Assembly (NCBI GenBank): GCA_963753345.1
Contig: CAVWBU010000049.1
Location: 128,001 to 192,000 of the forward strand
DNA: 64,000 nucleotides
From: an uncultured Fibrobacterota bacterium
GTDB taxonomy: Bacteria > Fibrobacterota > Chitinivibrionia > Chitinivibrionales > FEN-1185
Direction: 5' to 3'
Part shown: in pieces, positions 1,641 through 62,390 of the stretch
Layout: the number at the start of each line of letters is the position of its first letter
Position numbering within the stretch: the stretch's first letter is position 1
Notes under the pieces: model-generated
What the model saw: the letters and a program-made list of their open reading frames with translations, nothing else
What the model was told of the DNA's origin: nothing
Database searches by the model: none
Translations under genes and position numbers: made by a program

Positions 1641-1830
1641 GGGCGTTCCCCCATGTAGAGTCTCTACATGGGGGCGGCCGTGCTTCCGGTCTCGGCCTCC
1701 GGCCTCGGGCTGCCTGCCACGAATGCCCTGCGGGCCGTGGTCAGGCAGCACCGCGCTCCTGCGCGGCCTCCAGTCCTGCCTAACGCGCGGCAACGGAATT
1801 CTATTCAGTCAACTATTTCTTTCCGCGCCA
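1641..1830 (-). repeat. Structured intergenic repeat family F1, copy A, with upstream spaced motif
   Basis: Reverse complement reads TGGCGC-N12-TTGACT-N17-CGCGCGTTAGG...GACTGGAGG...GAGACCGGAAG...GGGGAACGCCC, matching copies at 5333, 8128, 50589 and 62220. Confidence 0.85.
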
Positions 1831-1873
1831 AAACGCATGCGCACACATCAACTAACGTTTCTTTCTTTACTTT

Positions 1874-1986
1874 TCAACGCTTCAACTATTCAACGTTTCA
1901 ACGCTTTTCTTCTCAACTCATCAACGCTCCAACGCTCGAACGCTCCAACTCTTCAACTTCTCAACTCCTCAACTTCTCAACTTCTT
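1874..1986 (-). repeat. Degenerate tandem octamer tract (TCAACTTC / GAAGTTGA)n
   Basis: Repeated TCAACNNN units visible on the + strand; overlaps the stop codon of the MurC-like gene. Confidence 0.85.
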
Positions 1987-3339
1987 CCTTATCTCCTCCA
2001 CCAGCGCCGGCAAAGAAGGATCTCTTGCGCCCATCACAAGCACAACATCACCAGCCCCGGTGTGCTGCTTGATAAGCGCGACAAGTTCAGCACGGTCGCG
2101 CGGGGCGGATACGGTTTTGCCCTTGTCCCGCACGAGGCCGGCGATAATGTCCGACGAGATGTCCTTCTGTGCGGTGCCGCCCGCGTAATAGATGGGGAGG
2201 AGAAACAGCATGTCGTCGGATGTCAATTCCTCTGCGAACATGGCGACGAATTCGTCCTTGAGGAACCGGGTGGGGCCGAAGCCGTGCGGCTGGAACACTG
2301 CAAGCACGCGAGGGGAGAGCAGGCGTGCGGCACGGATGGCTGCGCGGATTTTTTCCGGGTTGTGGGCGTAATCGTCGATGATGCGGATGCCGTTCTGTAA
2401 AGTCACCACCGAAAACCTGCGCTGCACGCCCTGGTATTCCGCCGCCGCGTGGGCCAGGGACGGCCCGTCGCAGCCGAGCGTGTCGCACACGCACAGCGCG
2501 GCCAGAAGGTTCGACAGGTTGTGCGCTCCGGGCAGCGGAAGGGTGTAGGTGACGCCGCCGCGCGAAAATGAAATCCCGGGCGCAATGGTAAAGCCCTTGT
2601 CGGGCGCGAAGTCTCCCTCGAGACCGAAGGTGCGCTGCGCGCCGAGGACCGCGAGCTGCGGGTCGTCGGCGTTGGCAACGGTGATGTTCGACTGTCTCGC
2701 CAGCGCGGAAAACAGGCAGAGCGTTTCGGGCACGGGCTTGTGGTCCTTGGACACGTTGAGGAACACGCTCAAGTACGGTTTGTATTTTGCGCACGTGCCG
2801 TCACTTTCGTCCGCCTCGATCACAAGGATGTCCGACGTGCCCATAAAGGCGTTGCCCGCAAGCCCCTGCTTTTCCAGGCGCACAAGGCCTGCGCCTGAAA
2901 TGAGCGAGGGCGACTTGCCGCATGCGTCAAGGAACTCCCATATCATTGCCGCGACGGTCGATTTTCCGCTCGTGCCCGCGACCGCGATGGTCGCCTTTGA
3001 TGCCACGACCGCCGCGAGCACATCGGACCGGTGAACGATCGCTATGCCCGCGGCACGCGCGGCCGCGATCTCGGGGTTTGTCTCCTCGATTGCGGTGGAC
3101 ACCACGAGCGCGTCGGTGCCGCGGGTGACGCCGGATCCGTCCTGCGGAACAAGGATGCAGCCGAGCTTGACGAGCTTGTCCTGGAGGTCCAGCACGTCCG
3201 CCGAATTGAGAAGACGGTCTGAGCCGGACACAACCACGCCGTCCCATGCGCAGTACTGGGCGATCGCGCTCATGCCCGAGCCGAGGATGCCCGCGAAATG
3301 CAGGCGGCGGCACGACACGCCGTTAATCGATAACGACAA
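1969..3339 (-). CDS. MurC/Mpl-like Mur ligase paralog
   Basis: GILGSGMSAIA, P-loop AGTSGKST, EADESDG, DDYAHNP and FQPHGFGP motifs; canonical murC lies separately in the dcw cluster. Confidence 0.85.
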   Translation of the reverse strand: MSLSINGVSCRRLHFAGILGSGMSAIAQYCAWDGVVVSGSDRLLNSADVLDLQDKLVKLGCILVPQDGSGVTRGTDALVVSTAIEETNPEIAAARAAGIAIVHRSDVLAAVVASKATIAVAGTSGKSTVAAMIWEFLDACGKSPSLISGAGLVRLEKQGLAGNAFMGTSDILVIEADESDGTCAKYKPYLSVFLNVSKDHKPVPETLCLFSALARQSNITVANADDPQLAVLGAQRTFGLEGDFAPDKGFTIAPGISFSRGGVTYTLPLPGAHNLSNLLAALCVCDTLGCDGPSLAHAAAEYQGVQRRFSVVTLQNGIRIIDDYAHNPEKIRAAIRAARLLSPRVLAVFQPHGFGPTRFLKDEFVAMFAEELTSDDMLFLLPIYYAGGTAQKDISSDIIAGLVRDKGKTVSAPRDRAELVALIKQHTGAGDVVLVMGARDPSLPALVEEIRKKLRS

Positions 3340-3853
3340 GCATACCCTCCGGAACGTGGTCGAACAGTTCCACGATGTCCGCGTTCTTCATGCACACGCA
3401 GCCGTGCGACGCGGGCGCGCCCACGGACTTCTCGTTGTTGGTGCCGTGGATGTAAATGTACCGCTCATAGGAATCGATGCCCTCGCCGCGGTTGATCCCG
3501 TCTTCGCATCCTTCGAGGCGCAATATTCTCGTAAGGATAAGATTCTCGCCCGGGACGCCCACGGTCCATGTTTCTCCTGTGTCAAGGCGGTCCCGAAATA
3601 CCCTGCCCACGGGCGCGCCGTGGCCGTATTTTTCCTTCACCCGGTGCACGCCCGCGGGCGTCATGAGCGAGCCGTCGGCGTTGCCCACGCCGAACCTCGA
3701 CGACGACACCGGGTATTCCTTCACGGCAACGCCGTCAACCAGGCGGTACAGCCTCTGTTTCGCAATGTCGACAAACAGGAATTTCTGCGGCGTTGCGCCG
3801 CACGTCCGTTTGAGGCGCTCCTGGGCGTTCCGCAAACGCACTGCATCGATCAT
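3323..3853 (-). CDS. L,D-transpeptidase (YkuD family)
   Basis: IYIHGT...ASHGCVCM catalytic motif; ATG at 3853 with AGGAGA RBS; overlaps the start of the Mur ligase gene. Confidence 0.88.
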   Translation of the reverse strand: MIDAVRLRNAQERLKRTCGATPQKFLFVDIAKQRLYRLVDGVAVKEYPVSSSRFGVGNADGSLMTPAGVHRVKEKYGHGAPVGRVFRDRLDTGETWTVGVPGENLILTRILRLEGCEDGINRGEGIDSYERYIYIHGTNNEKSVGAPASHGCVCMKNADIVELFDHVPEGMLVVID

Positions 3854-3974
3854 GGACACTTCTCCTGCCGCGCCGGGAGGACGCAAAGTAAACTTGTTGT
3901 AGACATGCGCACCGTAATAAAATATAATCAATATCTGCAACGAGGCTCACACATCAGCGGAAAGGCAGGCCATC

Positions 3975-4853: not shown

Positions 4854-4916
4854 GTGGCAGCGAAGAAGAGGAAAAAAGTCGCGAAGAAAAAAGCGACGAA
4901 GAAAAGGAAAAGATAG
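4854..4916 (+). CDS. 20-aa Lys/Arg-rich peptide MAAKKRKKVAKKKATKKRKR
   Basis: GTG start following AGGAGGTG RBS (4841-4848), TAG stop; flanked by promoter and terminator; below the ORF-track length cutoff. Confidence 0.7.
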   Translation: MAAKKRKKVAKKKATKKRKR

Positions 4917-4949
4917 GTCTTTCGTTCCTGCACGATGTGCGCAGGCAAG

Positions 4950-4985
4950 GCGGGTGGACGTGATGTCCGCCCGCTTTTGATTTTT
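4950..4985 (+). terminator. Intrinsic terminator
   Basis: GCGGGTGGAC-GTGAT-GTCCGCCCGC stem followed by TTTTGATTTTT. Confidence 0.8.
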
Positions 4986-5024
4986 AGGTTAGAGAATGGG
5001 AATCGAAAAGTTACTAATGGTGTC

Positions 5025-5141
5025 GGCGGGGGAAGTTTCCCCCTCGCTCCGGCCGCCTTCGGCGTCCTGCGCTACCCCCTCCTGGGTGCACCCCAAGTGG
5101 AAGCAGTGGCTGAATCAAGCATCTGTGTGGGGGCACCTACG
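5025..5141 (+). repeat. Structured intergenic repeat family F2, copy 1
   Basis: GGGGGAAGTTTCCCCCTCGCTCCGGCC-hairpin-GTCCTGCGCTACCCCCTC-TGGGTG..CCCC...GGGGCACCTACG; homologs at 7909, 50390 and 53014. Confidence 0.85.
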
Positions 5142-5260
5142 TAGAGCAGTTGTGAAGGCATTCCTTTTTCTCACTCAGTTTTGTTTGATCCGCCACAAAA
5201 TGGCGCATTATTTATTGCCGGGGCAACGCCCCGGGGCGACAAACAGAACAATGTATATTT

Positions 5261-5310
5261 CCCCTCTCCACTTTTGGAGAGGGGTGGCCGTGACAACGGC
5301 CGGGGTGAGG
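5261..5310 (+). repeat. REP-like palindrome (CCCTCTCC...GGAGAGGG...GGGGTGAGG family)
   Basis: Hairpin plus GGGGTGAGG tail; related copies at 32723 (minus) and 56607. Confidence 0.7.
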
Positions 5311-5332
5311 CGACGATTCTGAGAATTCCACT

Positions 5333-5508
5333 TGGCGCAACTATTGCAACTTGACAAAATAGATTTCTTCTGCCGCGCGTTAGGTGGACCGGAGGGCGCG
5401 CAAGAGCGCGCTGCCGGTCGACCCGGCCGATAGGCATAGGGCGATCCGGCAACGAGGCGAACAGCAGAGCCCGCAGGGAGACCGACCCCGCGAAGCGGGG
5501 GAACGCCC
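5333..5508 (+). repeat. Repeat family F1, copy B
   Basis: TGGCGC-N12-TTGACA-N17-CGCGCGTTAGG...GCGCGC-AAGA-GCGCGC...GGGGAACGCCC. Confidence 0.8.
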
Positions 5509-5686
5509 TGGTCTTATTTCTCTATTCCCTCCCAGCTATAATTATTGCACCCCGGTCTGGCATCTTTTAGATTTATTCCGCCTTGCGAAAGCATTACCGG
5601 GCAAAGATGTCCGCCGGGATGCCATGCAAATTTGAACGGCATGAGAGCATGGACAGCGCAAGGCTTGATACCCCTTTGTTAAGGTC

Positions 5687-7873
5687 ATGAAAGAATACTC
5701 CGCATACATCTCCGACACGTGGAACATCTCCGAGCCGCTCGCCAAAGAACTGTGCGAATGCTACGAAAAAGGGTATTCCCCGTATTACTGCGCCGACTAC
5801 CGGCCCGCGGTCGCGGTTGAGCTCGACGCCGCCGGCGTGTGGCCGATCTTCGATTTCCTCCGCACTATGGTCGAGCTATCGCCGAAGAAGAAGCGGCTTC
5901 TCAACGCGCTTAAGAAAAGCGGGAAGCTCACCGGCGACCTGGAAAAGCGGATCGTGCACAGCGCGAATTCCTTCGAGCTCGACGATATGCTTTTGCCGGA
6001 ACGGCTCAACCCGCGGAGCAAGGGACAGCTTGCGCTCAAGAAGGGGCTGGGCGAATGCGCCGACGCCATTCTTGCGCAGCAGGAAACAGGCGCTTCCCTC
6101 GATGACCTTGTCGCGCCGTACGTAGGGAAGGACCCTACGGTCGCGACGCAGGACGCCGTAATTGCAAATGTCAAGGACATCATCGCCGAGCGTTTCGCCT
6201 ACGACGAAACCGCGCGCGCCATGGTGCGCGAATTCATGTACGACGACGGCTTCTTCGAAGTCGTGCCCAAGTCGAAAACCGACGAGAGGTTTGCCCGCTT
6301 TGCCGGCAAACCGGCGCCGGTGCGCGAGGTTTCGAAGGAGGATCTCCTGATGCTCCTTGCCGCGGAAGACGGCAAACTTGCGCGCGTCAAGCTCACCGTG
6401 CAGCTCTTCCGCATCACCGAGCTTCTCAAGCACCACTTCGTGGTCAATCCCGACGCCGCCGGCTTCCCGCTCATCAGCGAGGCCATCGACGACAGCTGGG
6501 TGCGCCTGCTGCAGCCCATTGCCGAACGCGACGTCAAGGCGCGCCTGCGCGCCGAAGCCGAAGACTGGGCGCTCGGCGTCATCCGGCCGGACCTGCAGAA
6601 GCGGCTTGCCGGGGAAGGCGAGGAAAAATCGTGCATCGCCTGCGGGGTTCACGACAAGAAGACGTTCGCGGTCGTCGCGTGCAGCACGCGCGGGCGCCTG
6701 TACGGCGCGGCGGTCGAAAAGAAAATCCCGCTTGACAAGCCCGCGGTGAGCGAGCGCCTCAGACAGTTCGTGCTGCGGTACCATCCCGAGCGCATCCTGG
6801 TGGCCGACAACGAAAGCGCCGCGATCGCGGAGGCCATCATAGCAAAATCACTTGACGCGCTCCCGGCGGTCCCCGCGGTCGAGCGGGTCAAGCGGGCCGG
6901 GGGGCTTCCCGACATTGCGGCATCGGAATGGATGAAAAAGGAATGCGCCGATCTCGAAGAACCGATGCAGCACGTATTTGCCGCGGCATTGACCTGCCTT
7001 CAGCCCCTGCGCCTTCTTCCCGTCCTCGGCGCCGAATACTTTTCCCTTCATCCGCTGCAGGCCTGCGTCACGCCCGCCCGTTTTTCGGAATGCGTCGACC
7101 GGATCGTTGTCGGCATGAGCATCGCCCGCGGAATCTCCCCGAACGATCTTTCCGAAACGGTGCTGTCGCCGAACTTCGATCCGTTTGCAGGCGATGCCTT
7201 GCGAAAGGAGATCGCGTCCCGGTGCCAGAAGGCGCCGTTCGCCGCCAAGGACGACCTGCTCAAGGTGCCCGGCATCACCGAAAGCGCGTTCCGCAATCTG
7301 GCGGGCTATGTGGTGATTCCAACGGCCGATTTCGCCCTCGACCGCACCATGGTGCATCCCGACCATTTTTCGTGGATCGGCGAGATGTGCGAGTTTCTGC
7401 AGCTCCCGCCCGACGCGCTTGTGAACGACCCCGAGGCGGTCCGCTCGTTCCCGGAATCCGACTTCGCAAAGAAACTCTTTATCGAAAAGAAACTCATCGA
7501 CCAGCTTGCCGCCGGCCGCAGGTCCGCCGCGGCCGCGCTCGCCAAGCCCCGGCGGAAGCTCAAGCTCACCGAGATCGAGGAAGGTTCGGTGGTGAACGGC
7601 CGGGTGACCAACATCACGCCGTTCGGCGTGTTTGTCAACATCAACGCGGTGTGTGACGGCCTCATCCACATTTCACAGCTCGCCGACACCTATGTCGAAT
7701 CGGCCGACCAGGTGGTGAGCGTGGGCGACGTGATAAATGTCCGCGTTCTCAAGGTGGACATCAAGAAGCGGAGAATCTCGCTGTCGATGAAAGGCCTGGG
7801 CCACCAGGGCCCCAAGGTTTCCCCCTCAAAGCGCCAGCTGTCGGACCTTGCCTCTCATTTTCAGAATCGCTGA
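5687..7873 (+). CDS. Divergent Tex-like protein with C-terminal S1 domain
   Basis: Tex-like N-terminus, HhH-like KVPGITESAFRNLAGY, LDRTMVHPD, and S1 domain GRVTNITPFGVFVNI..DGLIHISQL. Confidence 0.8.
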   Translation: MKEYSAYISDTWNISEPLAKELCECYEKGYSPYYCADYRPAVAVELDAAGVWPIFDFLRTMVELSPKKKRLLNALKKSGKLTGDLEKRIVHSANSFELDDMLLPERLNPRSKGQLALKKGLGECADAILAQQETGASLDDLVAPYVGKDPTVATQDAVIANVKDIIAERFAYDETARAMVREFMYDDGFFEVVPKSKTDERFARFAGKPAPVREVSKEDLLMLLAAEDGKLARVKLTVQLFRITELLKHHFVVNPDAAGFPLISEAIDDSWVRLLQPIAERDVKARLRAEAEDWALGVIRPDLQKRLAGEGEEKSCIACGVHDKKTFAVVACSTRGRLYGAAVEKKIPLDKPAVSERLRQFVLRYHPERILVADNESAAIAEAIIAKSLDALPAVPAVERVKRAGGLPDIAASEWMKKECADLEEPMQHVFAAALTCLQPLRLLPVLGAEYFSLHPLQACVTPARFSECVDRIVVGMSIARGISPNDLSETVLSPNFDPFAGDALRKEIASRCQKAPFAAKDDLLKVPGITESAFRNLAGYVVIPTADFALDRTMVHPDHFSWIGEMCEFLQLPPDALVNDPEAVRSFPESDFAKKLFIEKKLIDQLAAGRRSAAAALAKPRRKLKLTEIEEGSVVNGRVTNITPFGVFVNINAVCDGLIHISQLADTYVESADQVVSVGDVINVRVLKVDIKKRRISLSMKGLGHQGPKVSPSKRQLSDLASHFQNR

Positions 7874-7908
7874 TATCAAGTTTTTCACTTTCTCCCAATG
7901 AATTTGCT

Positions 7909-8055
7909 GGTGGGGGAAGGCTCCCCGTCGCTCCGGCCCTGCGCTCGTCACATCAAAGTTCGTCTTATTCCGCGCAGGTCCTGCGCTGCCCCCTCATGGG
8001 TAGCCGCCTTGACAAAGCAGTGGCAAGACCATGCAATGCTGTGGCGGCACCCACG
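7909..8055 (+). repeat. Repeat family F2, copy 2
   Basis: Same conserved blocks as 5025-5141; terminal stem GCCGCC/GGCGGC replaces CCCC/GGGG. Confidence 0.85.
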
Positions 8056-8127
8056 AAGAATAGTTGAGGAGTTGAGAGGTTGAGAAGTTAATAGGAAAAC
8101 AATGATTTACTCCTTGAAGATTCCGGC

Positions 8128-8323
8128 TGGCGCAATAAGAGTAAATTGACAGAATGGATTTCTCCTGCCGCGCGTTAGGGGCGACTGGAGGTCCCGCTAG
8201 AGCGGGATGCCGCCCGGACACGCCGCGAAGCGGCCTCGTGCCGAGGCGGCCCGAGGCCGAAGGCCGAGACCGGAAGGAGAACCGACCCGAGCCTGAGTCT
8301 TGACGAAGGCGAGGGGAACGCCC
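8128..8323 (+). repeat. Repeat family F1, copy C
   Basis: TGGCGC-N12-TTGACA-N17-CGCGCGTTAGG...TCCCGC-TAGA-GCGGGA...GAGACCGGAAGG...GGGGAACGCCC. Confidence 0.88.
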
Positions 8324-8373
8324 AAGTCCTCTACTAGGAACGCTTGATAACCTGCCATACTTAACAATCGGGA

Positions 8374-10050
8374 TTACATTCTCTCCGGCGCCGAAACACC
8401 CAACAAATCCAATCCTAGTCTGATCACGTTCCTCACGCCGCAAGTGAGCAGCAGCCTCGCGCACGACAGGGGCCTGTTGTCCGTCACGATCCTGTGCTTC
8501 TGGTAGAACGAATGGAACTCCGCGGCGAACGATTCGAGGTAGGCGGTGATGCGCTGGGGCTCCACGAACAGCGCGGTCTGCACGAGCAGGGTGGGGAATT
8601 CCGCGATGCGACGCACCAGGTCGAGCTCTTCCGGCTCGGCAAGCAGGGAGGGCGAGGCGCCGCCGGCATTCCCGTCTGTAAAGCCCTGTTGGCGCGCGTG
8701 GGCAAGCAGGCTGCACGTGCGTGCATGTGCATACTGGACGTAATACACGGGGTTGTCGTCGGATTTCTTCGTGGCGAGCGTCATGTCGAAGTCGAAATGG
8801 CTTGACAGGCGGCGCATGAGGAAGAAGTAGCGCATCGCGTCGACGCCCACCTCGTCGAGCAGGTCGGCCATGGTCACGAAGTCGCCCTTACGCTTGGACA
8901 TGCGGAACGGGACGCCGTCGCGGATCAGGTTAACCTGCTGGATGATGAAATTCTTAAAGACGGTCTTCGACAGTCCGAGTGCGGACACCGCGCCCTCGAG
9001 CCGGGGCAGATACCCGTGATGGTCGGGCCCCCAGAACGTGTACGATTCGTCAAACCCGCGCGACGCCTTGTGCAGGTGGTACGAAAGATCGGCCAGGAAG
9101 TAGGTGGGCGATCCGTCCTGCCGCACGAGTACGCGGTCTTTTTCGTCGCCGAAATTGGTCGAGGCGAACCAGACCGCGCCTTCCTTTTCGAGAACAAGGC
9201 CCTTTTCGCGAAGGAGCGAGAGTGTCTTTGCGGGCGCGTCCGATTTGTGAAGCTCGCTTTCCATAAACCAGCGGTCGTAGTTCACGCCGTACGCGGCAAG
9301 GATTTTTTTCTGGTCTGCCATGATGCGGCCCAGCGCCTCCGCAGTGAACAGCCGTTCGGCTTCGGCGCCGGGCATTGCCGCGACCTCGGGCCTGGCCGCG
9401 GAGATTTCGGCTGCCAGGTCGCGTATGTAATCGCCCTCGTAGCCGCCCTCGGGAATGGCCGCGTCCTTTCCGTGGCCCTGGTAGTACCGGCATGCAATCG
9501 ATTTTCCCAGCAGCTCGACCTGGTTGCCGTAGTCGTTCACGTAGTATTCGCGCTCCACCTCGTGGCCCAGCCACGAATTGACGCGCGCGATGGTGTCGCC
9601 GATTGCCGCGGCGCGTCCGTTGACCACCACCATGGGCCCGGTCGGGTTTGCGCTCACGAACTCGAACAGGATGCGTTTCTTCTGCGGAACCTGGTTGCGG
9701 CCGTATCGCTCCGGCGACAGCGCGGCCTCGGCAAGCACGCCATGCAGATACACGGGGCTCAGACGGAAATTGATGAACCCGCCCGCAATCGTGCTCACAA
9801 GGCCCGGATCGGGCGTCACGAAGCGGTCGTCCCATGCAAATCGCTCCATGAGTTTGCGGGCGACGGCCACGGGATTTTCTTTGAGGATTTTTGCAAGGCC
9901 GAGCGCCATGGGCGACGAAAGGTCGCCGTGCGATTTCTGCTTTGGTTTTTCGATGACGATATCTGGGGCAGCAACCGCTGTCCCGCCGAACGCCGACGCC
10001 GCGGCCGACCGGAGCGCGCCGGCAAGATATGCATACACGGAATCAGGCAT
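8374..10050 (-). CDS. argS: Arginine--tRNA ligase
   Basis: EFVSANPTGP, EYYVNDYGNQ, WGPDHHGY, RMSKRKG and NPVYYVQYAHAR motifs. Confidence 0.96.
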   Translation of the reverse strand: MPDSVYAYLAGALRSAAASAFGGTAVAAPDIVIEKPKQKSHGDLSSPMALGLAKILKENPVAVARKLMERFAWDDRFVTPDPGLVSTIAGGFINFRLSPVYLHGVLAEAALSPERYGRNQVPQKKRILFEFVSANPTGPMVVVNGRAAAIGDTIARVNSWLGHEVEREYYVNDYGNQVELLGKSIACRYYQGHGKDAAIPEGGYEGDYIRDLAAEISAARPEVAAMPGAEAERLFTAEALGRIMADQKKILAAYGVNYDRWFMESELHKSDAPAKTLSLLREKGLVLEKEGAVWFASTNFGDEKDRVLVRQDGSPTYFLADLSYHLHKASRGFDESYTFWGPDHHGYLPRLEGAVSALGLSKTVFKNFIIQQVNLIRDGVPFRMSKRKGDFVTMADLLDEVGVDAMRYFFLMRRLSSHFDFDMTLATKKSDDNPVYYVQYAHARTCSLLAHARQQGFTDGNAGGASPSLLAEPEELDLVRRIAEFPTLLVQTALFVEPQRITAYLESFAAEFHSFYQKHRIVTDNRPLSCARLLLTCGVRNVIRLGLDLLGVSAPERM

Positions 10051-16356: not shown

Positions 16357-16914
16357 ATGCCCATAGAATTACTCTATATCATTCCGGTCCTCGCGGTGGC
16401 GTTTCTGGTGTACCGCCTCGTTCTCAACGCACAGAAGCGCGCAGAGGCCGCCGGTGCAGCAGGCACGGTTAAGGCCGGGGACACCAAATCGCAGCAGGCT
16501 GTCCGGTCCACCGAGGAGCGGCTTAACGAATACGAACAGACAATCGCCCAGATCAACAGAACGCTTTCTGCCCAGCAGAAGGTCATCGAGAAATTTCAGG
16601 AGGAAAACACTTCCTGCACCGGCGAAATAGAAAAGCTCAACGCGCAGCTCCGGGAACTACACAAGGAATACGATATTGTTATCAGTGAAAACTTCTCGCT
16701 TCGCGCAAAAGCAAAGAGCCTTCAAAGAAAGCTCGATGGCATTCCCGCCGCGTTTGACTCGGCAGGTCCCGCCGCCGAGTCGGCTCCGCCTTCCGACGGC
16801 GTCAAGGAGACGATGGCGATGAACCTGAACCTGTACGAAGACACCAAGCTCTTCAAATCGTCCTCACTGCTTGACGACACGACACGGTTCGACGAGACCG
16901 AATCCTCAGCCTAA
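16357..16914 (+). CDS. Membrane-anchored coiled-coil protein, function unknown
   Basis: N-terminal TM helix then a heptad-rich helical region. Confidence 0.7.
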   Translation: MPIELLYIIPVLAVAFLVYRLVLNAQKRAEAAGAAGTVKAGDTKSQQAVRSTEERLNEYEQTIAQINRTLSAQQKVIEKFQEENTSCTGEIEKLNAQLRELHKEYDIVISENFSLRAKAKSLQRKLDGIPAAFDSAGPAAESAPPSDGVKETMAMNLNLYEDTKLFKSSSLLDDTTRFDETESSA

Positions 16915-35979: not shown

Positions 35980-38262
35980 ATGTTGAAAAAAATCCTTCTT
36001 ACCATTGTCCTGGCCGCGGGACTGCTGTATTCGCAGCCGGCCTCAGACATCGACACGGTGCTCGTGACGCCCGTGTTTCTCAAGCTGGTCGACAACTCGA
36101 ATAACGTTTTCAAGTACGTCGGCAAGGTGACCTACCAGCTCGTCGGCTGGTCCAACGACCAGTTCACCGCGTCGCTCTCGATCATCCAGGACGGCTCCGG
36201 CACGGTGGTGCCGCTTACCTCGGTGAAAGGCGACGGTTACGGTTCATTTACAAGATGGGGACTAAAGGGAATCTTTTTCGCGTGCCAGTTCAACGGCCCG
36301 CCGAGCGGGACCTACAAGGCGAAGGTGAGCGTGATCGCCTCGCAGAGCGACTCAGCCAAGTTTGTTGAAAGTAAGATCAACAGCCTTTCCAATGGCGACA
36401 AGCAGACCATCATCAATGGCGGATCGGCCGGCGGCGTGCCGGCAGTGGCATGGCAGGACGGCCCGTATGGCGTCCGCGGCGGGTATGCATACCCGGCCGG
36501 CGAGGGCATGGCGTCCACGTGGGACACCGCAATCGCCGAACAAGGCGGATATTACAAGGGTCAGGATTTCAGGGGCGTGGGCTCCTTCAACATCATGCTC
36601 GGCACCACCGTGAACCTGGTGCGCGACGCACGGGGCGGCCGCACGTTCGAGAGCTACGGCGAAGATCCGTTTCTCCAGGGCAAGATGGCAGCGGCGGACT
36701 GCCGCGGGTGCAGCAAGAGCGGCCTCATGGTTACTGTAAAGCATTTCTGCTGCAACAACGAGGAGCGTGCGCGAGGAAATTACCCGGTGTGGGCCACAGA
36801 GCGGACCCTGCGCGAACTGTATACCTATCAATTCGGCATGGCTGCGCTTGAGGGCGAGGCAACCGGCTTCATGACCGCGTACAATGCGGTGAACGGCTTC
36901 CATAACGCTCACAACAAGCACACGATAACCGATATTATCAAGAACTCATGGGGTATGAAGGGATACTTCCTTACAGACTGGGACGATGGCGGCGGCAATT
37001 ATCCTGATGCCGCCCAGGCCGGGCTTGACCTGCCTACCCCGGACACATGGGGCGGCGCTCTGGCGGCCATGGTGCCCGGCACCATTTCGCAAGCCTTTTT
37101 CGACGACAAGGCACGGCGCTGGCTATGGGCGCGCTATAGGACGCACTGCTTTGAGCCGGGATATACGATCCAGTCGACCTACCATGACTCCATCGACAAT
37201 ACAACGCACTACAATTACATGCGCCAGGCAACGCGCGAGGCAATGGTGCTGATGAAGAACGACAACAACATCCTGCCGATTGACAGAAATTCAAGCCCCG
37301 TGACGATTGCCTGCGTGGGTACGTATGCGAACAATATGCAATGGTTCGTTTCCGCAAGCAGCCTGGTGAATCCGAAGCATTTGACGACTGCCTCTGCCGC
37401 GATAAAAAAGATCGGCGGCACAAACGTGACCGTCAACACCGATTATGCGAACGCCGATTATGCAGTGGTCTGCATAGGGCCCATTGACATGGGCGAGGGA
37501 AACGACAGGGTGAATGTCAGCTTGCCGGATTCCGACAACGCGCTGGTTGCCAAGGTGCTTGCCGCGAATCCGCACACCATCGTGTTTTATGAAGGCGGAA
37601 GCTGGGCGGATTCCGGCGCATGGAACAAAGCGCCGGGGATCATCGCGGAGTTTTTTGCCGGCGAAGATCATACGCTTGCCTTTGCCGAGGTTCTGTTCGG
37701 CGACTACAATCCTGCCGGCAGGTTGTCCATGACCTTTCCCGCAGACTCGACGCAGCTTCCCGTGTGGGGCATCGGCGCTCCATGGAACACCTCGGGCGCG
37801 ACCAAGGATTTTTATGAGGACGCCTGGGAAGGCAGGGGATACCCGTATTACGACTATCATAAAATGACGCCGCTGTTCTACTTCGGCCACGGCCTGAGTT
37901 ACACGACGTTCCAATACAGCAACCTCTCAATAACGCCGGCCGGCGGATATCCGGGCGACACGTTCCACGTAAGCGTGGACGTGAAGAACACGGGCACGCG
38001 CGACGGCGACGAAGTGGTGCAGCTGTACCTGCACGACGAGCAGAGCGCTTTGCCTCGGCGGTACAAGGACCTGCGCGGCTTTGCCAGGGTTCCGCTCACC
38101 GCGGGCCAGACAAAGACCGTGAACTTCGGGATCACGGAACGCGACATGGAATACTATGACACCACGCAGACCGCGTGGGTGGTCGAGCCGGGCCCGATCG
38201 ACGTGCTCGTGGGCGCGTCATCGCACGACATTAGGCAGACAGGAACGATAACGCTGTATTAG
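35980..38262 (+). CDS. GH3 beta-glucosidase-like hydrolase (paralog 1)
   Basis: GRTFESYGEDP, KHF, FLTDW (nucleophile), GEGNDR, FGHGLSYTTF and an Fn3-like C-terminus. Confidence 0.93.
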   Translation: MLKKILLTIVLAAGLLYSQPASDIDTVLVTPVFLKLVDNSNNVFKYVGKVTYQLVGWSNDQFTASLSIIQDGSGTVVPLTSVKGDGYGSFTRWGLKGIFFACQFNGPPSGTYKAKVSVIASQSDSAKFVESKINSLSNGDKQTIINGGSAGGVPAVAWQDGPYGVRGGYAYPAGEGMASTWDTAIAEQGGYYKGQDFRGVGSFNIMLGTTVNLVRDARGGRTFESYGEDPFLQGKMAAADCRGCSKSGLMVTVKHFCCNNEERARGNYPVWATERTLRELYTYQFGMAALEGEATGFMTAYNAVNGFHNAHNKHTITDIIKNSWGMKGYFLTDWDDGGGNYPDAAQAGLDLPTPDTWGGALAAMVPGTISQAFFDDKARRWLWARYRTHCFEPGYTIQSTYHDSIDNTTHYNYMRQATREAMVLMKNDNNILPIDRNSSPVTIACVGTYANNMQWFVSASSLVNPKHLTTASAAIKKIGGTNVTVNTDYANADYAVVCIGPIDMGEGNDRVNVSLPDSDNALVAKVLAANPHTIVFYEGGSWADSGAWNKAPGIIAEFFAGEDHTLAFAEVLFGDYNPAGRLSMTFPADSTQLPVWGIGAPWNTSGATKDFYEDAWEGRGYPYYDYHKMTPLFYFGHGLSYTTFQYSNLSITPAGGYPGDTFHVSVDVKNTGTRDGDEVVQLYLHDEQSALPRRYKDLRGFARVPLTAGQTKTVNFGITERDMEYYDTTQTAWVVEPGPIDVLVGASSHDIRQTGTITLY

Positions 38263-38265
38263 CAG

Positions 38266-38331
38266 GTTGAACGTTGACGGTTGACAAGCGGGGTACGTAG
38301 CAATGCCTTTCTGTCAACGGTCAACCGTTAA
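38266..38331. repeat. Heptamer-built inverted repeat between the GH3 genes
   Basis: GTTGAACGTTGACGGTTGACA ... TGTCAACGGTCAACCGTTAAC. Confidence 0.65.
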
Positions 38332-38356
38332 CTTTCTCCAACATGAGGGGGAGGAC

Positions 38357-40630
38357 ATGAAATTCAGATTCATAGCAGCCGCGCTTTGTGCATGCGCGGT
38401 AATCGTTTCCGGCCAGCCGCTCACCCAGATAGACACGGTGCAGGTGACGCCGGTTTTTCTCAAGCTCGTCGACAACTCCGGCGGCGTCTACAAGTACAGG
38501 GGAAAGGTGTCCTACCGCATCATCGGGTGGGCGTACGACCGGTTCAACGTTTCCTTGTCGCTCATACAGGACGGCACCGGAACGGTCGTGCCGCTCACCA
38601 TGACCAAGGGCGACATCGGCCAGCTCACATGGCAGGGCGACAAAGGAATCCATTTCGCCTGCCAGTTCAACGGCCAGCCCACGGGCACCTACAAGGCAAA
38701 GATTTCGATCGCTTTGTCACAGAGCGACACCGCTGTTTTTATCGAAAACAAGATTGCATCGATGTCGAACGGTGACAAACAAACCATCGTAAACGGCGGG
38801 AGCGCGGCGGGCGTCGTGGGTCTGAACTGGCGCGACGGCCCGTACGGCCTTGGCGGCACCTGGTCCTTCCCCACGGGCCTCGCAATGGCCGCCACGTGGG
38901 ACACGGCCATCGTCGAAGAGGGCGGCCGTTTCATGGGAATGTGCTTCCGGGGACACGATTATAACGTCCAGCTGGGACCTTCCTGCAATCTTTGCCGCGA
39001 CAGCCGCGCCGGACGGACCACCGAATCATACGGCGAAGATCCCTTTGTAAACGGCAAAGGCGCCACCGCAGCCGTTAAGGGCGTGATGCGGGGCGGCACC
39101 ATTCCGACGCTCAAGCATTACTGCTGCAACAATGTGGAGCGCGCGCGGGGGTTCTACCCCGTGCACGTTTCGGAGCGGGGACTTCGCGAGCTTTACACAT
39201 ACCACTTCGGCATGGCTGCTCATGACGGCGGTACCGCCGCCATCATGGTAGCCTACAATTCGGTGAACGGCCTCCATAATGCGCAAAATCATCACACCAT
39301 GACCGACATCCTCAAGAACTCCTGGGGCCTGAAGGGATTCATCCTCACGGACTGGGACAACGGCGGCACCGGCAATGCTTCCATATTGGCATTGGCAGGA
39401 CTCGACCTGCCCACCCCGGGAACCTGGGGCGGCGGTCTGGAGGGACTGGTGCCTGGTACCATTACGCAGGGATTTTTCGACGACAAGGCGCGCCGCTCGC
39501 TGTGGGCGCGGTACAAAACAGGTTGTTTCGATCCCGGATACACAAGGACAATGTACACGGATTCCATCAACAGCACGAACATGTACAACTACGCGCGCCG
39601 GGTCTCGCGCGAATGCTATATCCTTCTCAAGAACGACAACAACCTGCTTCCGCTTGACAGAAGCGTCCCGATGACCATTGCCATGGTGGGGCCATGGGCC
39701 AATGAAATCCGGTGCGGTCCGGTCGGCAGCGCCCAGAACTGTCCCAGCAAGCACTACACCGCGCCGACGGCGGCGGTAAAACAGATCGGCGGCTCGAACA
39801 TCACGGTCAACAGCGATTACAATAATTGCGACTATGCGATCGTGTGCATCGGCCCCAACGATGAGGGCGAGGGCTTTGACCGCAACGAAGTATCACTGCC
39901 CGATACGCAGGATAAGCTGGCTGGAACAGTGCTCGCCGCAAATCCCGGCCATACTATTGTGTGGTATACCGGAGGCAGCACCGCGGACACGGGTAACTGG
40001 AACAAAGTCCCGGCGATTATCATGTCGTCTTATCCCGGTGAAGACCATGCCATGGCCCTGGCCGAGGTTCTGTTCGGCGACTACAATCCGGGCGGGAAAA
40101 CCCCGTTAACGTTCCCGCTGGACTCGACCCAGCTCCCGAGGTTCGGCGTGAACACTCCGTGGGGCGATACCGGCGATCCCTACGAGCCAGTGTGGGAGGG
40201 ACGGGGATATCCCTACTACGACTTCCACCATCTGACGCCGCTGTTCTGCTTCGGTTACGGCCTCAGTTACACCACGTTTGCGTACAGCGGTCTTTCGATC
40301 TCACCGGCCGGAGGGTATCCGGGCGACACATTTGCCGTTTCTGTGAATGTCCAGAACACCGGCAGCCGCGCCGGCGACGAAGTGGTGCAGCTGTACCTGC
40401 ACGACGAACAGAGTGTCCAGCCCAGGCGGTACAAAGACCTGCGCGGGTTCAGGCGCGTTCCTCTTAACGTCGGAGAGACAAAGACCGTCACCTTCAATCT
40501 TGTGGAGCGCGACTTCGAGTACTACGACACCACGCAGACGGCGTGGGTTATAGAGCCCGGGGCGGTGGACGTCCTCGTAGGATCATCGTCTCTCGACATC
40601 AGGCAGCAGGGGACGATTACGTTTTATTAA
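38357..40630 (+). CDS. GH3 beta-glucosidase-like hydrolase (paralog 2)
   Basis: GRTTESYGEDP, KHY, ILTDW, GEGFDR, FGYGLSYTTF; collinear with paralog 1; GGAGG RBS. Confidence 0.93.
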   Translation: MKFRFIAAALCACAVIVSGQPLTQIDTVQVTPVFLKLVDNSGGVYKYRGKVSYRIIGWAYDRFNVSLSLIQDGTGTVVPLTMTKGDIGQLTWQGDKGIHFACQFNGQPTGTYKAKISIALSQSDTAVFIENKIASMSNGDKQTIVNGGSAAGVVGLNWRDGPYGLGGTWSFPTGLAMAATWDTAIVEEGGRFMGMCFRGHDYNVQLGPSCNLCRDSRAGRTTESYGEDPFVNGKGATAAVKGVMRGGTIPTLKHYCCNNVERARGFYPVHVSERGLRELYTYHFGMAAHDGGTAAIMVAYNSVNGLHNAQNHHTMTDILKNSWGLKGFILTDWDNGGTGNASILALAGLDLPTPGTWGGGLEGLVPGTITQGFFDDKARRSLWARYKTGCFDPGYTRTMYTDSINSTNMYNYARRVSRECYILLKNDNNLLPLDRSVPMTIAMVGPWANEIRCGPVGSAQNCPSKHYTAPTAAVKQIGGSNITVNSDYNNCDYAIVCIGPNDEGEGFDRNEVSLPDTQDKLAGTVLAANPGHTIVWYTGGSTADTGNWNKVPAIIMSSYPGEDHAMALAEVLFGDYNPGGKTPLTFPLDSTQLPRFGVNTPWGDTGDPYEPVWEGRGYPYYDFHHLTPLFCFGYGLSYTTFAYSGLSISPAGGYPGDTFAVSVNVQNTGSRAGDEVVQLYLHDEQSVQPRRYKDLRGFRRVPLNVGETKTVTFNLVERDFEYYDTTQTAWVIEPGAVDVLVGSSSLDIRQQGTITFY

Positions 40631-50389: not shown

Positions 50390-50502
50390 GGTGGGGGAGG
50401 TTTCCCCCTGCTTGCGGCCCTACGGTCCTCCAGCACCCCCTCTTGGGTGGCCCCCAAGTAAGTTGGTTGCGAGAAACATGCTTCTGCTGGGGGGCACCCA
50501 CG
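50390..50502 (+). repeat. Repeat family F2, copy 3
   Basis: GGGGGAGGTTTCCCCCTGC..GGCC-CTACGG-TCC..CACCCCCTC-TGGGTGGCCCCC...GGGGGGCACCCACG. Confidence 0.85.
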
Positions 50503-50588
50503 AAAAATAGTTGAGAAGTTGAGGAGGTGAGAAGTTGAAAAGTCGAGAACGAAAAAAATGTTTTTCCTGGTTCACGGCAGATGCCGAT

Positions 50589-50645
50589 TGGCCCGAGAGG
50601 AAGAGCTTGACTGAACGGAAATCTGTTGTCGCGCGTTAGGGATTG
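50589..50645 (+). repeat. Repeat family F1, copy E (5' part only)
   Basis: TGGCCC-N12-TTGACT-N17-CGCGCGTTAGG, ending at the stop codon of the ceramidase-like gene. Confidence 0.7.
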
Positions 50646-53013: not shown

Positions 53014-53168
53014 CGGGTACGGAGGGTTCCCCCTCGCTCCAGCCCGGCGCGCGGTTCCAATCGGTTGCTCATGTCAATTGCGCGCCGGTCTTTCGCTACC
53101 CCCTCCAGGGTGGCCCCCAAGTGAGGTGATTTGCGAGAATAAGTTGCTGCGGTTGGGGGGCACCCGCG
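53014..53168 (+). repeat. Repeat family F2, copy 4
   Basis: TTCCCCCTCGCTCC..CCGGCGCGC/GCGCGCCGG..CGCTACCCCCTCCAGGGTGGCCCCCAAG...GGGGGCACCCGCG. Confidence 0.8.
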
Positions 53169-53227
53169 GAGAATTGTCGAAGAGATTTCCAATGGATCTG
53201 TCATCATCCCACCTTTGAGAAGAAGAA

Positions 53228-62017: not shown

Positions 62018-62219
62018 TTGAAGAGAATGGAGTGCAAATTACAAATTGAAAATTCCGGATTGATGGATGAACGACCGGAATGAGTTAATGCCTTTCCCTA
62101 AAGCACCTTGAGCATGTTTTGTCAGCCAAGAAGTACGCCTGACAAGATGTAAGTTTTAACAGTCCTCAATCCACGTTACAACTGCACACGAACTATCTCA
62201 ATTTTCTTTCGGGAGTTTT

Positions 62220-62390
62220 CGCGTTAGGCTGGACCGGAGGTCCCGCTGGAGCGGGATGCCGCCCGGACCCGCCTTTTGTAGAGACGCAGCGGCGCTGCGT
62301 CTCTACAAAAGGAATAGGGCCGTGGCGGCCCGAGGCCTGTGGCCGAGACCGGAGGGAGGGCCGCCACCGGCTTTAGCCGGTGGAACGCCC
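62220..62390 (+). repeat. Repeat family F1, copy D
   Basis: CGCGTTAGG..GGACCGGAGG-TCCCGC-TGGA-GCGGGA..GAGACCGGAGGG..GGAACGCCC; lies between convergent genes. Confidence 0.88.

Follow-up and report, generated by a model that had tools for sequence, protein, structure and literature searches.

The window, by which we mean the whole 64-kb stretch of DNA that was analysed, belongs to the genome G000 (4.5 Mb in 55 contigs, 56% G+C, 94% complete) and harbours four full copies of a structured repeat unit, designated F1. Further modules are found 5′ of some of these copies, namely a leader, an 8-base tandem tract and a second structured repeat, X. The features are as follows, with scores from R1, a covariance model of F1 that has a broader counterpart, R2.

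1642-1788, minus strand: F1 copy A, 127.6 bits; CCGCGC-AGGA-GCGCGG and GCTGCC/GGCAGC
~1790-1968, minus strand: long run of the tandem tract (GTTGARRN)n
5023-5146: X of copy B
5320-5374: leader of copy B
5375-5507, plus strand: F1 copy B, 93.2 bits; GCGCGC-AAGA-GCGCGC
7901-8061, plus strand: X module 5′ of copy C, the second structured repeat
8063-8089, plus strand: 8-base tandem tract (GTTGARRN)n between X and the leader of copy C
8115-8169, plus strand: leader of copy C, TGGCG ... TTGAC ... TGCC, conserved in the genus
8170-8322, plus strand: F1 copy C, 129.5 bits; TCCCGC-TAGA-GCGGGA
8172-8176/8317-8321: helix P1 of copy C
8178-8187/8274-8283: helix P1b of copy C, irregular and G.A-rich
8192-8207: P2 of copy C
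8209-8250: P3 of copy C
8255-8265: P4 of copy C
8286-8316: P5 of copy C
~50390-50500: X 5′ of the F1 stub
~50505-50550: further (GTTGARRN)n tract
50576-50640, plus strand: F1 stub, a leader followed by the first 10 F1 bases only (50631-50640)
~53020-53170, plus strand: X module without F1
62219-62389, plus strand: F1 copy D, 110.6 bits; TCCCGC-TGGA-GCGGGA

All the strings that an earlier, sequence-only reading of this DNA quoted for its four full copies were located in the window, and so were the closing stem GCGTT/AACGC, the GGCC-NNN-GGCC hairpin and the two GACYGGA motifs that it described. Its total of four full copies stands for the window, but the family is much larger, comprising the 5′ stub as well and some 380-400 members in the genome. 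Copy D contains a long insert hairpin within P3 and has neither leader nor X 5′ of it.

The X module, of about 160 bases, begins with a GGGGG-AAGNNT-CCCCC hairpin, ends with a long GGGTG...CACCC hairpin and has no Rfam match. The tandem tract consists of 3 to ~17 units, and its opposite strand is C-rich and almost free of G. An intrinsic terminator (14-bp stem and T run) is found at 4947-4977, ~45 nt 5′ of the X module that starts at 5023. Another hairpin repeat, present at 5261-5306 and in many F1 flanks, reads CCCCTCTCC...GGAGAGGGG and then GGCCG...CGGCC GGGGTGAGG, and gives a chance match to Histone3. Elsewhere in the window, 36265-40461 holds two tandem paralogous stretches of ~2.37 kb with 72-83% identity (repeat families D1-D4 and D11), which belong to a three-member paralogue family.

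A conserved multi-helix fold

The F1 unit is a junction of six to seven helices, closed by P1, whose conserved fold comprises this closing stem, an irregular helix (P1b), the hairpins P2, P3 and P4, and a variable P5. P1 takes the form GCGTT/AACGC in 226 copies of G000 and GCGCC/GGCGC in 96. The earlier proposal of a multi-stem fold with compensated changes is borne out by the pairing and double-change counts, and could be extended. With 29 hand-placed pairs in 75 copies aligned by MAFFT (alignment A1), 92.0% of cells hold standard pairs, compared with 34-45% when the partners are slid, while double-change cells number 227 against 75 in shuffles, none of the 500 shuffles reaching the observed value. 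As predicted helices, P1, P2, P3 and P4 are supported by covariation in these alignments.

The irregular helix P1b was indicated by mutual information on an alignment of 102 rows that was not fitted to those positions. It would pair G9G10 with CC, continue with three variable pairs (C-G, U-A, G.A) and then with an invariant G.A and A.G, C16-G, Y17-R and a closing G.A. The C16-G pair is present in 96/96 of the rows with letters on both sides, and Y17-R105/106 appears as UA in 68 rows, CG in 18 and other combinations in 5, with a gap in 11. Support for the helix as a whole is moderate, standard pairs making up 73.8% as opposed to 27-66% with slid partners. The two GACYGGA motifs, previously described as unpaired, most likely pair with each other, facing one another in an irregular, purine- and G.A-rich helix in which Y17-R105/106 covaries and C16-G is invariant.

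Changes from the cluster consensus within clusters of closely related copies (138 copies, 15 clusters) affect 17.1% of loop positions, 2.5% of stems, 2.4% of the junction J1/2 and 3.0% of J4/5, so that loops are about seven times as changeable as stems; the same clusters contain 29 compensated pairs, alongside 23 G.U, 14 A.C and 27 other changes. Single-sequence folding neither reproduces the covariation-backed fold nor separates the strands (z -2.27 for sense, -3.24 for antisense). As to wobble counts, G.U and A.C number 22 and 19 in A5, 58 and 33 in A3, where 26 of the 58 G.U fall at a single pair, and 280 and 132 in the nhmmer alignment, where 175 of the 280 G.U fall in P2.

The string GCGNAGC is found 109 times on the sense strand and 14 times on the antisense strand of 358 copies, and this bias, together with the invariant G.A pairs, points to the sense strand as the folded one. 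It also forms the P3 loops of copies in Saprospiraceae. An excerpt of PMC13037366 describes GCGNAGC as a 'mini-hairpin DNA' motif whose RNA version is considerably less stable, and places the motif at single-strand initiation sites. These strings provide a lead towards a fold at the DNA level, short of proof.

Copy number and boundaries in the genome

The element of 155 bases belongs to a family that occupies about 400 gene gaps of G000 and retains its elaborate fold from copy to copy. By blastn, 294 places are found, and nhmmer gives 217, rising to 398 after one iteration; of the nhmmer hits, 378 have a 5′ end that can be anchored, and for 358 of them a rule-based search finds a closed P1. 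R1 recognises at least 150 of the G000 candidates, that is, 150/150 of those scored. Variable hairpins in P3 and P5, and an extra hairpin after P4 in some copies, account for a length range of ~130 to 200 bases. The unit is estimated to make up ~1.3% of the genome (~400 copies of ~150 bases).

Metagenome data, in the form of DNA contigs broken at the repeats, agree with this abundance: summed over the contigs of four runs, the repeat is covered ~90 times as deeply as the genes beside it (for run X1, 1031 versus 11.7). Loose contig ends delimit X on its left, at 5025/5028, and F1 on its right, at 8324. A clean joint across an empty site was not found in the contigs of the four runs. Copy C matches its closest counterpart at 94%, and no near-identical pair of copies exists, duplicated contigs aside, which gives no indication of a very recent burst. 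Neither terminal inverted repeats nor target duplications are seen, the ends consisting only of GCGTT... and ...AACGCCCAA, and the junctions in site comparisons between G000 and its congener G001 are likewise free of target duplications.

Placement in gene gaps and modular organization

According to a crude gene caller (3137 genes), F1 is intergenic in 374 of the 378 anchored copies and lies inside genes in four. The gene 3′ of F1 is co-oriented in 185 cases, at a median of 106 nt, and convergent in 188, with its stop codon at a median of 33 nt. On the 5′ side, 231 neighbouring genes share the orientation of F1 and 135 oppose it, a bias towards the upstream gene, and divergent gene gaps hold 64 of 365 copies. 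Orientation relative to GC skew is 180:128 (79:47 at an absolute skew above 0.02), compared with 790:530 for genes, and follows no replication-strand rule. Antisense copies between co-directional genes (n=71) have a median score of 83.9 bits, set against ~70, and a closed P1 in 91.5%, set against 93-98%. Taken together, these undecayed antisense copies and the near equality of G.U and A.C argue against a dependence on co-transcription.

F1 forms a mosaic with its upstream modules. X has 288 nhmmer hits in G000 and precedes F1 in 195 of the 378 copies, in the same orientation every time (none opposite), across a median gap of 121 nt that is made up of the 8-base tandem tract and the ~45-nt leader. 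The 5′ end of X follows the stop codon of a co-oriented gene in 177 of 261 cases, at a median distance of 15 nt. F1 alone, X alone and tract plus F1 are also seen. A long hairpin element of TGTAGATT tandem units and their complement is located inside the P3 loop of two F1 copies; its sites include contig C21 near 231606 and contig C26 near 126931 of G000, and it is also present 5′ of tRNA-Glu genes.

Column conservation in the leader spans -45 to -1, with TTGAC in 217/378 copies and TGGCG in 205/378. Some copies have TAGATTTC 8-15 nt 5′ of the core; head-to-head pairs exist in which each F1 is complete with its own leader, and the 3′ flank is T-rich. The tRNA genes of G000 are preceded by TTGACA-N17-18-TAnnTTT, a Bacteroidota-like -7 box combined with the canonical -35 hexamer. 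The leader is probably not a usable promoter, its TTGAC standing only 3-4 nt from the TA box and a well-placed TAnnTTT occurring in 35/378 copies, and a scan of 4900-8500 with a sigma-70-type consensus returned 0 sites. Pairing between the leader and the 3′ flank (TTGG/CCAA) was rejected, as it displays no covariation by eye.

Turnover at orthologous sites

The congeners compared share 72-83% protein identity, and the G001 flanks are ~89-95% identical. Downstream of the gene at 1969-3339, at the site of copy A, G000, G004 and G005 all carry an F1 of like orientation; numerous paired differences separate these copies, and their flanks have diverged. The sites of copies B and C, in turn, lack F1 in G004, whereas G005 has F1 there in inverted orientation, and also an extra F1 at a site where G000 has an 11-base gap. 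G002 possesses copy C, but an insertion sequence splits its X. This insertion sequence (L104, ~2560-3860, at the site orthologous to 7901-8061 of the window) contains a 369-aa ORF for a putative DDE transposase.

In G001, whose flanks at this site are ~90-93% identical, 6 bases stand in place of the 553-base block 4984-5536 with its X, leader and copy B. As unique bases lie inside the missing block, this allele, the one clean empty one, may reflect a deletion and not a site that was never filled. The intrinsic terminator described above is also found in G001, with the downstream flank directly after it. One shared site is occupied by tract, leader and F1 in G001 but by another G+C-rich structured repeat (C19:74688-74884) in G000; at another, the two genomes have P5 and the 3′ end in common, while the F1 bodies and upstream modules differ. 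These comparisons of orthologous sites indicate that F1 copies are gained, lost, inverted and recombined. In G005, one F1 copy contains within its 5′ end a classical MITE of ~130 bases that has terminal inverted repeats and is accompanied by a short target duplication (L106, ~16380-16515).

Distribution across genomes

Within the genus, five of six genomes, G000 included, contain many copies, and four of the five others are saturated; the congener G003, 99% complete, has 0 matches. High copy numbers mark G000, G001, G002, G004, G005 and G041, and G007, like G003, has none. R2 matches 18 of 121 genomes in a Fibrobacterota sample that includes G000, and 13 of these lie outside the genus, with 1-20 matches each. 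One of the latter contains a single copy by blastn, and four of 46 genomes in a family of another order have R2 matches. Public contigs labelled Chitinivibrionales bacterium or Fibrobacteres bacterium also carry high-scoring F1.

An exact 23-base core pattern occurs in at least 84 stretches of GTDB species genomes. R1 was applied to 80 of these loci and gave 21 matches, made up of 15 on Fibrobacterota-labelled contigs, three in a Saprospiraceae MAG, two in a Proteobacteria-labelled MAG and a borderline one in Sinorhizobium that a whole-genome search did not confirm. The Saprospiraceae MAG, from the phylum Bacteroidota, harbours at least 53 copies, with matches in four of 61 genomes of a sample of that family, and the MAG labelled Proteobacteria at least seven. 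The Saprospiraceae copies are ~104 bases long, have the same core as F1 and show P1 in six complementary forms as well as compensated changes in P1b pairs. In an independent MAFFT alignment, P1 appears as TT/AA, TG/CA, CT/AG, CA/TG, CC/GG and GGCCT/AGGCC. The cross-phylum alignment A5, which was fitted to the model, is 89.3% paired versus 34-48% with slid partners, with P1 paired in 47/47 rows and double changes in 27 of 29 pairs. Some copies in Saprospiraceae and in the genome G042 lie only 3-30 nt from the genes on both sides.

The 23-base core pattern has 0 matches in viral contigs, and blastn found no F1 on plasmids. Single matches in high-G+C genomes were set aside as being at chance level (~35 expected, by an estimate from 18 specified bases in 2 x 596 Gb). 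The many pattern matches in Pseudomonadales and Pseudohongiella were also discarded, since they belong to another repeat, with a long hairpin, that goes unmatched by R1. That repeat has a perfect ~29-bp stem capped by a ~75-base conserved region, shares the 23-base CGAGGC-N5-GCCGAGCCCGGA with F1 and is found at L117, L123, L125, L134, L143, L163, L178, L181 and other loci of Pseudomonadales and Pseudohongiella MAGs. The distribution of F1 is patchy, with lineage-specific bursts, one of them in another phylum.

Known RNA classes and candidate partner genes

The termini of F1 had been likened to the Flavo-1 motif, but the Rfam 15 model gives no match, terminal or otherwise, even at E≤10 over 4900-8500, and the suggestion of a sister family of Flavo-1 is unsupported; F1 is an uncatalogued family. 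Cmscan with Rfam 15 over the whole 64-kb window returned 0 matches at gathering scores. At E≤10, the region 4900-8500 with copies B and C gave only chance matches to Histone3 and SNORD75 and none to Flavo-1, and the loci of seven relatives yielded no Flavo-1 and nothing real at E≤1. Literature searches on Chitinivibrionales repeats and on the Flavo-1 motif turned up no account of the F1 family.

The search for a mobilizing or partner gene was largely negative. PF01797 (Y1/RAYT) has 0 matches in G000 (94% complete) and G003, and its eight matches in G002 represent an IS200-like multi-copy element. PF07282 (TnpB) is absent from all five genomes searched and PF00078 (reverse transcriptase) from G000 and G005. 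PF01548 (IS110) has one match in G000 and none in G004 despite the many F1 copies there, so that IS110 does not track F1. A paralogue search found no linked multi-copy gene, the sole large family being 14 GH2 glycosidases, and the genes adjoining distant F1 copies have no family in common among 10 proteins.

Several assignments were rejected on these grounds. A riboswitch or other cis-regulatory leader does not fit downstream genes that run with F1 in 185 cases and against it in 188, nor neighbours that are unrelated. For the omega RNA of TnpB/IscB, the bridge RNA of IS110, a retron or a group II intron RNA, no linked cognate gene was found. Membership in a REPIN-RAYT system was dismissed because G000 has no Y1 gene and the unit is not a short palindrome pair, and membership in the MITEs because terminal inverted repeats and a target duplication are missing. 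The X-F1 mosaic does display the features of BIMEs and NIMEs: modules in a fixed order, placed in gene gaps and in varying combinations.

Possible explanations for the repeat

The explanation to which we give about an even chance is that F1 constitutes the chief module of a structured repeat that is non-autonomous, recombines and is propagated through its folded sense strand. X, the 8-base tandem tract, the leader and F1 would together form an intergenic mosaic element, whose sense-strand fold, as RNA or as single-stranded DNA, would be kept as the substrate of a putative unlinked enzyme of the host or of a mobile element. This enzyme would recognise the F1 fold when copying the element into new gene gaps, and the inserted copies would then exchange parts through their conserved cores, by recombination or gene conversion. 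They would be tolerated because they lie outside coding sequence, and their G+C-rich hairpins may act as passive barriers at transcript ends. In its favour stand the copy number and boundaries, the covarying fold, the patchy distribution, the turnover at orthologous sites, the sense-strand motifs and the independence from transcription context. What weakens this reading is that no mobilizing enzyme was found (G000 being 94% complete), that terminal inverted repeats and target duplications are missing, that the one clean empty allele may be a deletion, that no copies are near-identical, and that orientation is biased towards the upstream gene (231 versus 135). The contrast in rate between loops and stems and the site kept in three species, moreover, fit selection on resident copies, and hence a host function; the pattern of changes within clusters also fits many active lineages with module exchange. 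These observations favour the rather unlikely alternative of a host-serving, cis-acting RNA module of untranslated regions, its copies maintained by selection, whose fold would bind a conserved protein or block RNases or RNA polymerase, and would so insulate, terminate or stabilise transcripts as an elaborate analogue of REP/BIME function. Besides the sevenfold excess of variation in loops over stems and junctions, it draws support from the excess of compensated pairs, from the copy A site that stays occupied in G000, G004 and G005 while its flanks diverged, from the start of X just past co-oriented stops and the 3′ end of F1 close to convergent ones, and from the copies of Saprospiraceae and G042 that are so close to both neighbours that they must be co-transcribed. 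Only 63% of copies, however, are co-directional with the upstream gene, and the 71 antisense copies are not more decayed; sporadic G.U and A.C mismatches are about equal, simple hairpins would suffice for termination or stabilisation, the congener G003 does without the family, and orthologous sites are often empty or inverted.

The near equality of G.U and A.C and an intactness that is independent of transcription context point instead towards a fold that acts as a single-stranded DNA site, for example for a primase or primosome, a tyrosine recombinase or an HUH enzyme, and the sense-strand excess of GCGNAGC, the mini-hairpin DNA motif of the PMC13037366 excerpt, points the same way. We regard this as improbable, given that the orientation bias relative to GC skew is no stronger than that of genes, that G000 has no HUH/Y1 gene, and that G.A-rich internal loops and triloops occur in RNA too. 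Quite improbable is an independently transcribed small RNA gene in hundreds of copies with its promoter in the leader, which might serve, for instance, as a sponge for a protein or for the ribosome through GGAGG/AAGGAG motifs. The conserved leader with its TTGAC, the TAGATTTC of some copies, the head-to-head pairs with their own leaders and the T-rich 3′ flank would suit such a gene; the 3-4 nt between TTGAC and the TA box, compared with N17-18 at tRNA genes, the rarity of a well-placed TAnnTTT and the empty sigma-70-type scan do not, and the Saprospiraceae copies, copy D and a second upstream type have no leader, while the GGAGG motifs appear engaged in the G.A-rich helix. Assignment to a known RNA class (Flavo-1, a transposon guide RNA, part of a retron or group II intron, or a riboswitch) is largely refuted and very improbable: the likeness suggested for the termini, the occurrence in many copies and the one IS110-type gene of G000 are outweighed by the lack of Rfam matches at gathering scores or E≤10, by the absence of TnpB and reverse transcriptase from G000 and of IS110 from the copy-rich G004, and by neighbours that are unrelated housekeeping genes in every orientation to F1. 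Somewhat apart stands the proposal that F1 represents a widespread and uncatalogued class of structured nucleic acids of Fibrobacterota, Bacteroidota and at least one other lineage, in which a specific biochemical activity of the junction and of the G.A helix would move it between gene gaps and between phyla with no need of a known transposase. F1 would then be the substrate or partner of a putative recombinase or nuclease, or else a catalytic, self-mobilizing RNA or single-stranded DNA; we consider this proposal unlikely.

Comparison with known systems and significance

BIMEs are the enterobacterial mosaics of REP units, and NIMEs are the neisserial intergenic mosaic elements. F1 resembles both in its hundreds of copies confined to gene gaps, its ordered modules, its abutment on stop codons and its module swaps. 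It differs from them in being a multi-helix junction of 135-200 bases with conserved unpaired or non-canonical nucleotides rather than a palindrome of 20-40 bases, in its presence in divergent gaps as well (64/365), and in the recurrence of its fold in another phylum. MITEs and Correia elements fall into the same range of size and copy number as F1 and are likewise intergenic and co-transcribed with their neighbours, but F1 lacks terminal inverted repeats beyond the 5-bp P1, as well as a target duplication, and the classical MITE within the G005 copy looks quite different from it.

REPINs, as portrayed in excerpts of PMC3116915, PMC3337134 and the RAREFAN preprint, are likewise non-autonomous, present in hundreds of copies and persistent in lineages, and F1, like them, would need a single-copy enzyme acting in trans. 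F1 is unlike a REPIN in that it is not an inverted pair of REPs, is not accompanied by a Y1/RAYT gene in G000 or G003, and is patchy across phyla and not mostly vertical. With Flavo-1, F1 has in common that it is an uncharacterised structured motif of the Fibrobacterota-Chlorobiota-Bacteroidota group, but the Rfam model fails on F1 and on its Saprospiraceae relatives at every threshold tried.

The bacterial interspersed repeats that have been described so far are, to our knowledge, either short palindromes or elements with terminal inverted repeats, and their transposase is identified or suspected. F1 is instead a unit of 135-200 bases whose multi-helix fold is kept by compensatory change in at least two phyla, with no known mobilizing enzyme present. 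The family merits a public covariance model, because the repeat fragments the assemblies of these peat and sediment bacteria. If it is true that the fold is the substrate of a copying mechanism, that mechanism would be new; if, on the other hand, F1 serves its host, it would represent an unusually complex module of untranslated regions, used hundreds of times.
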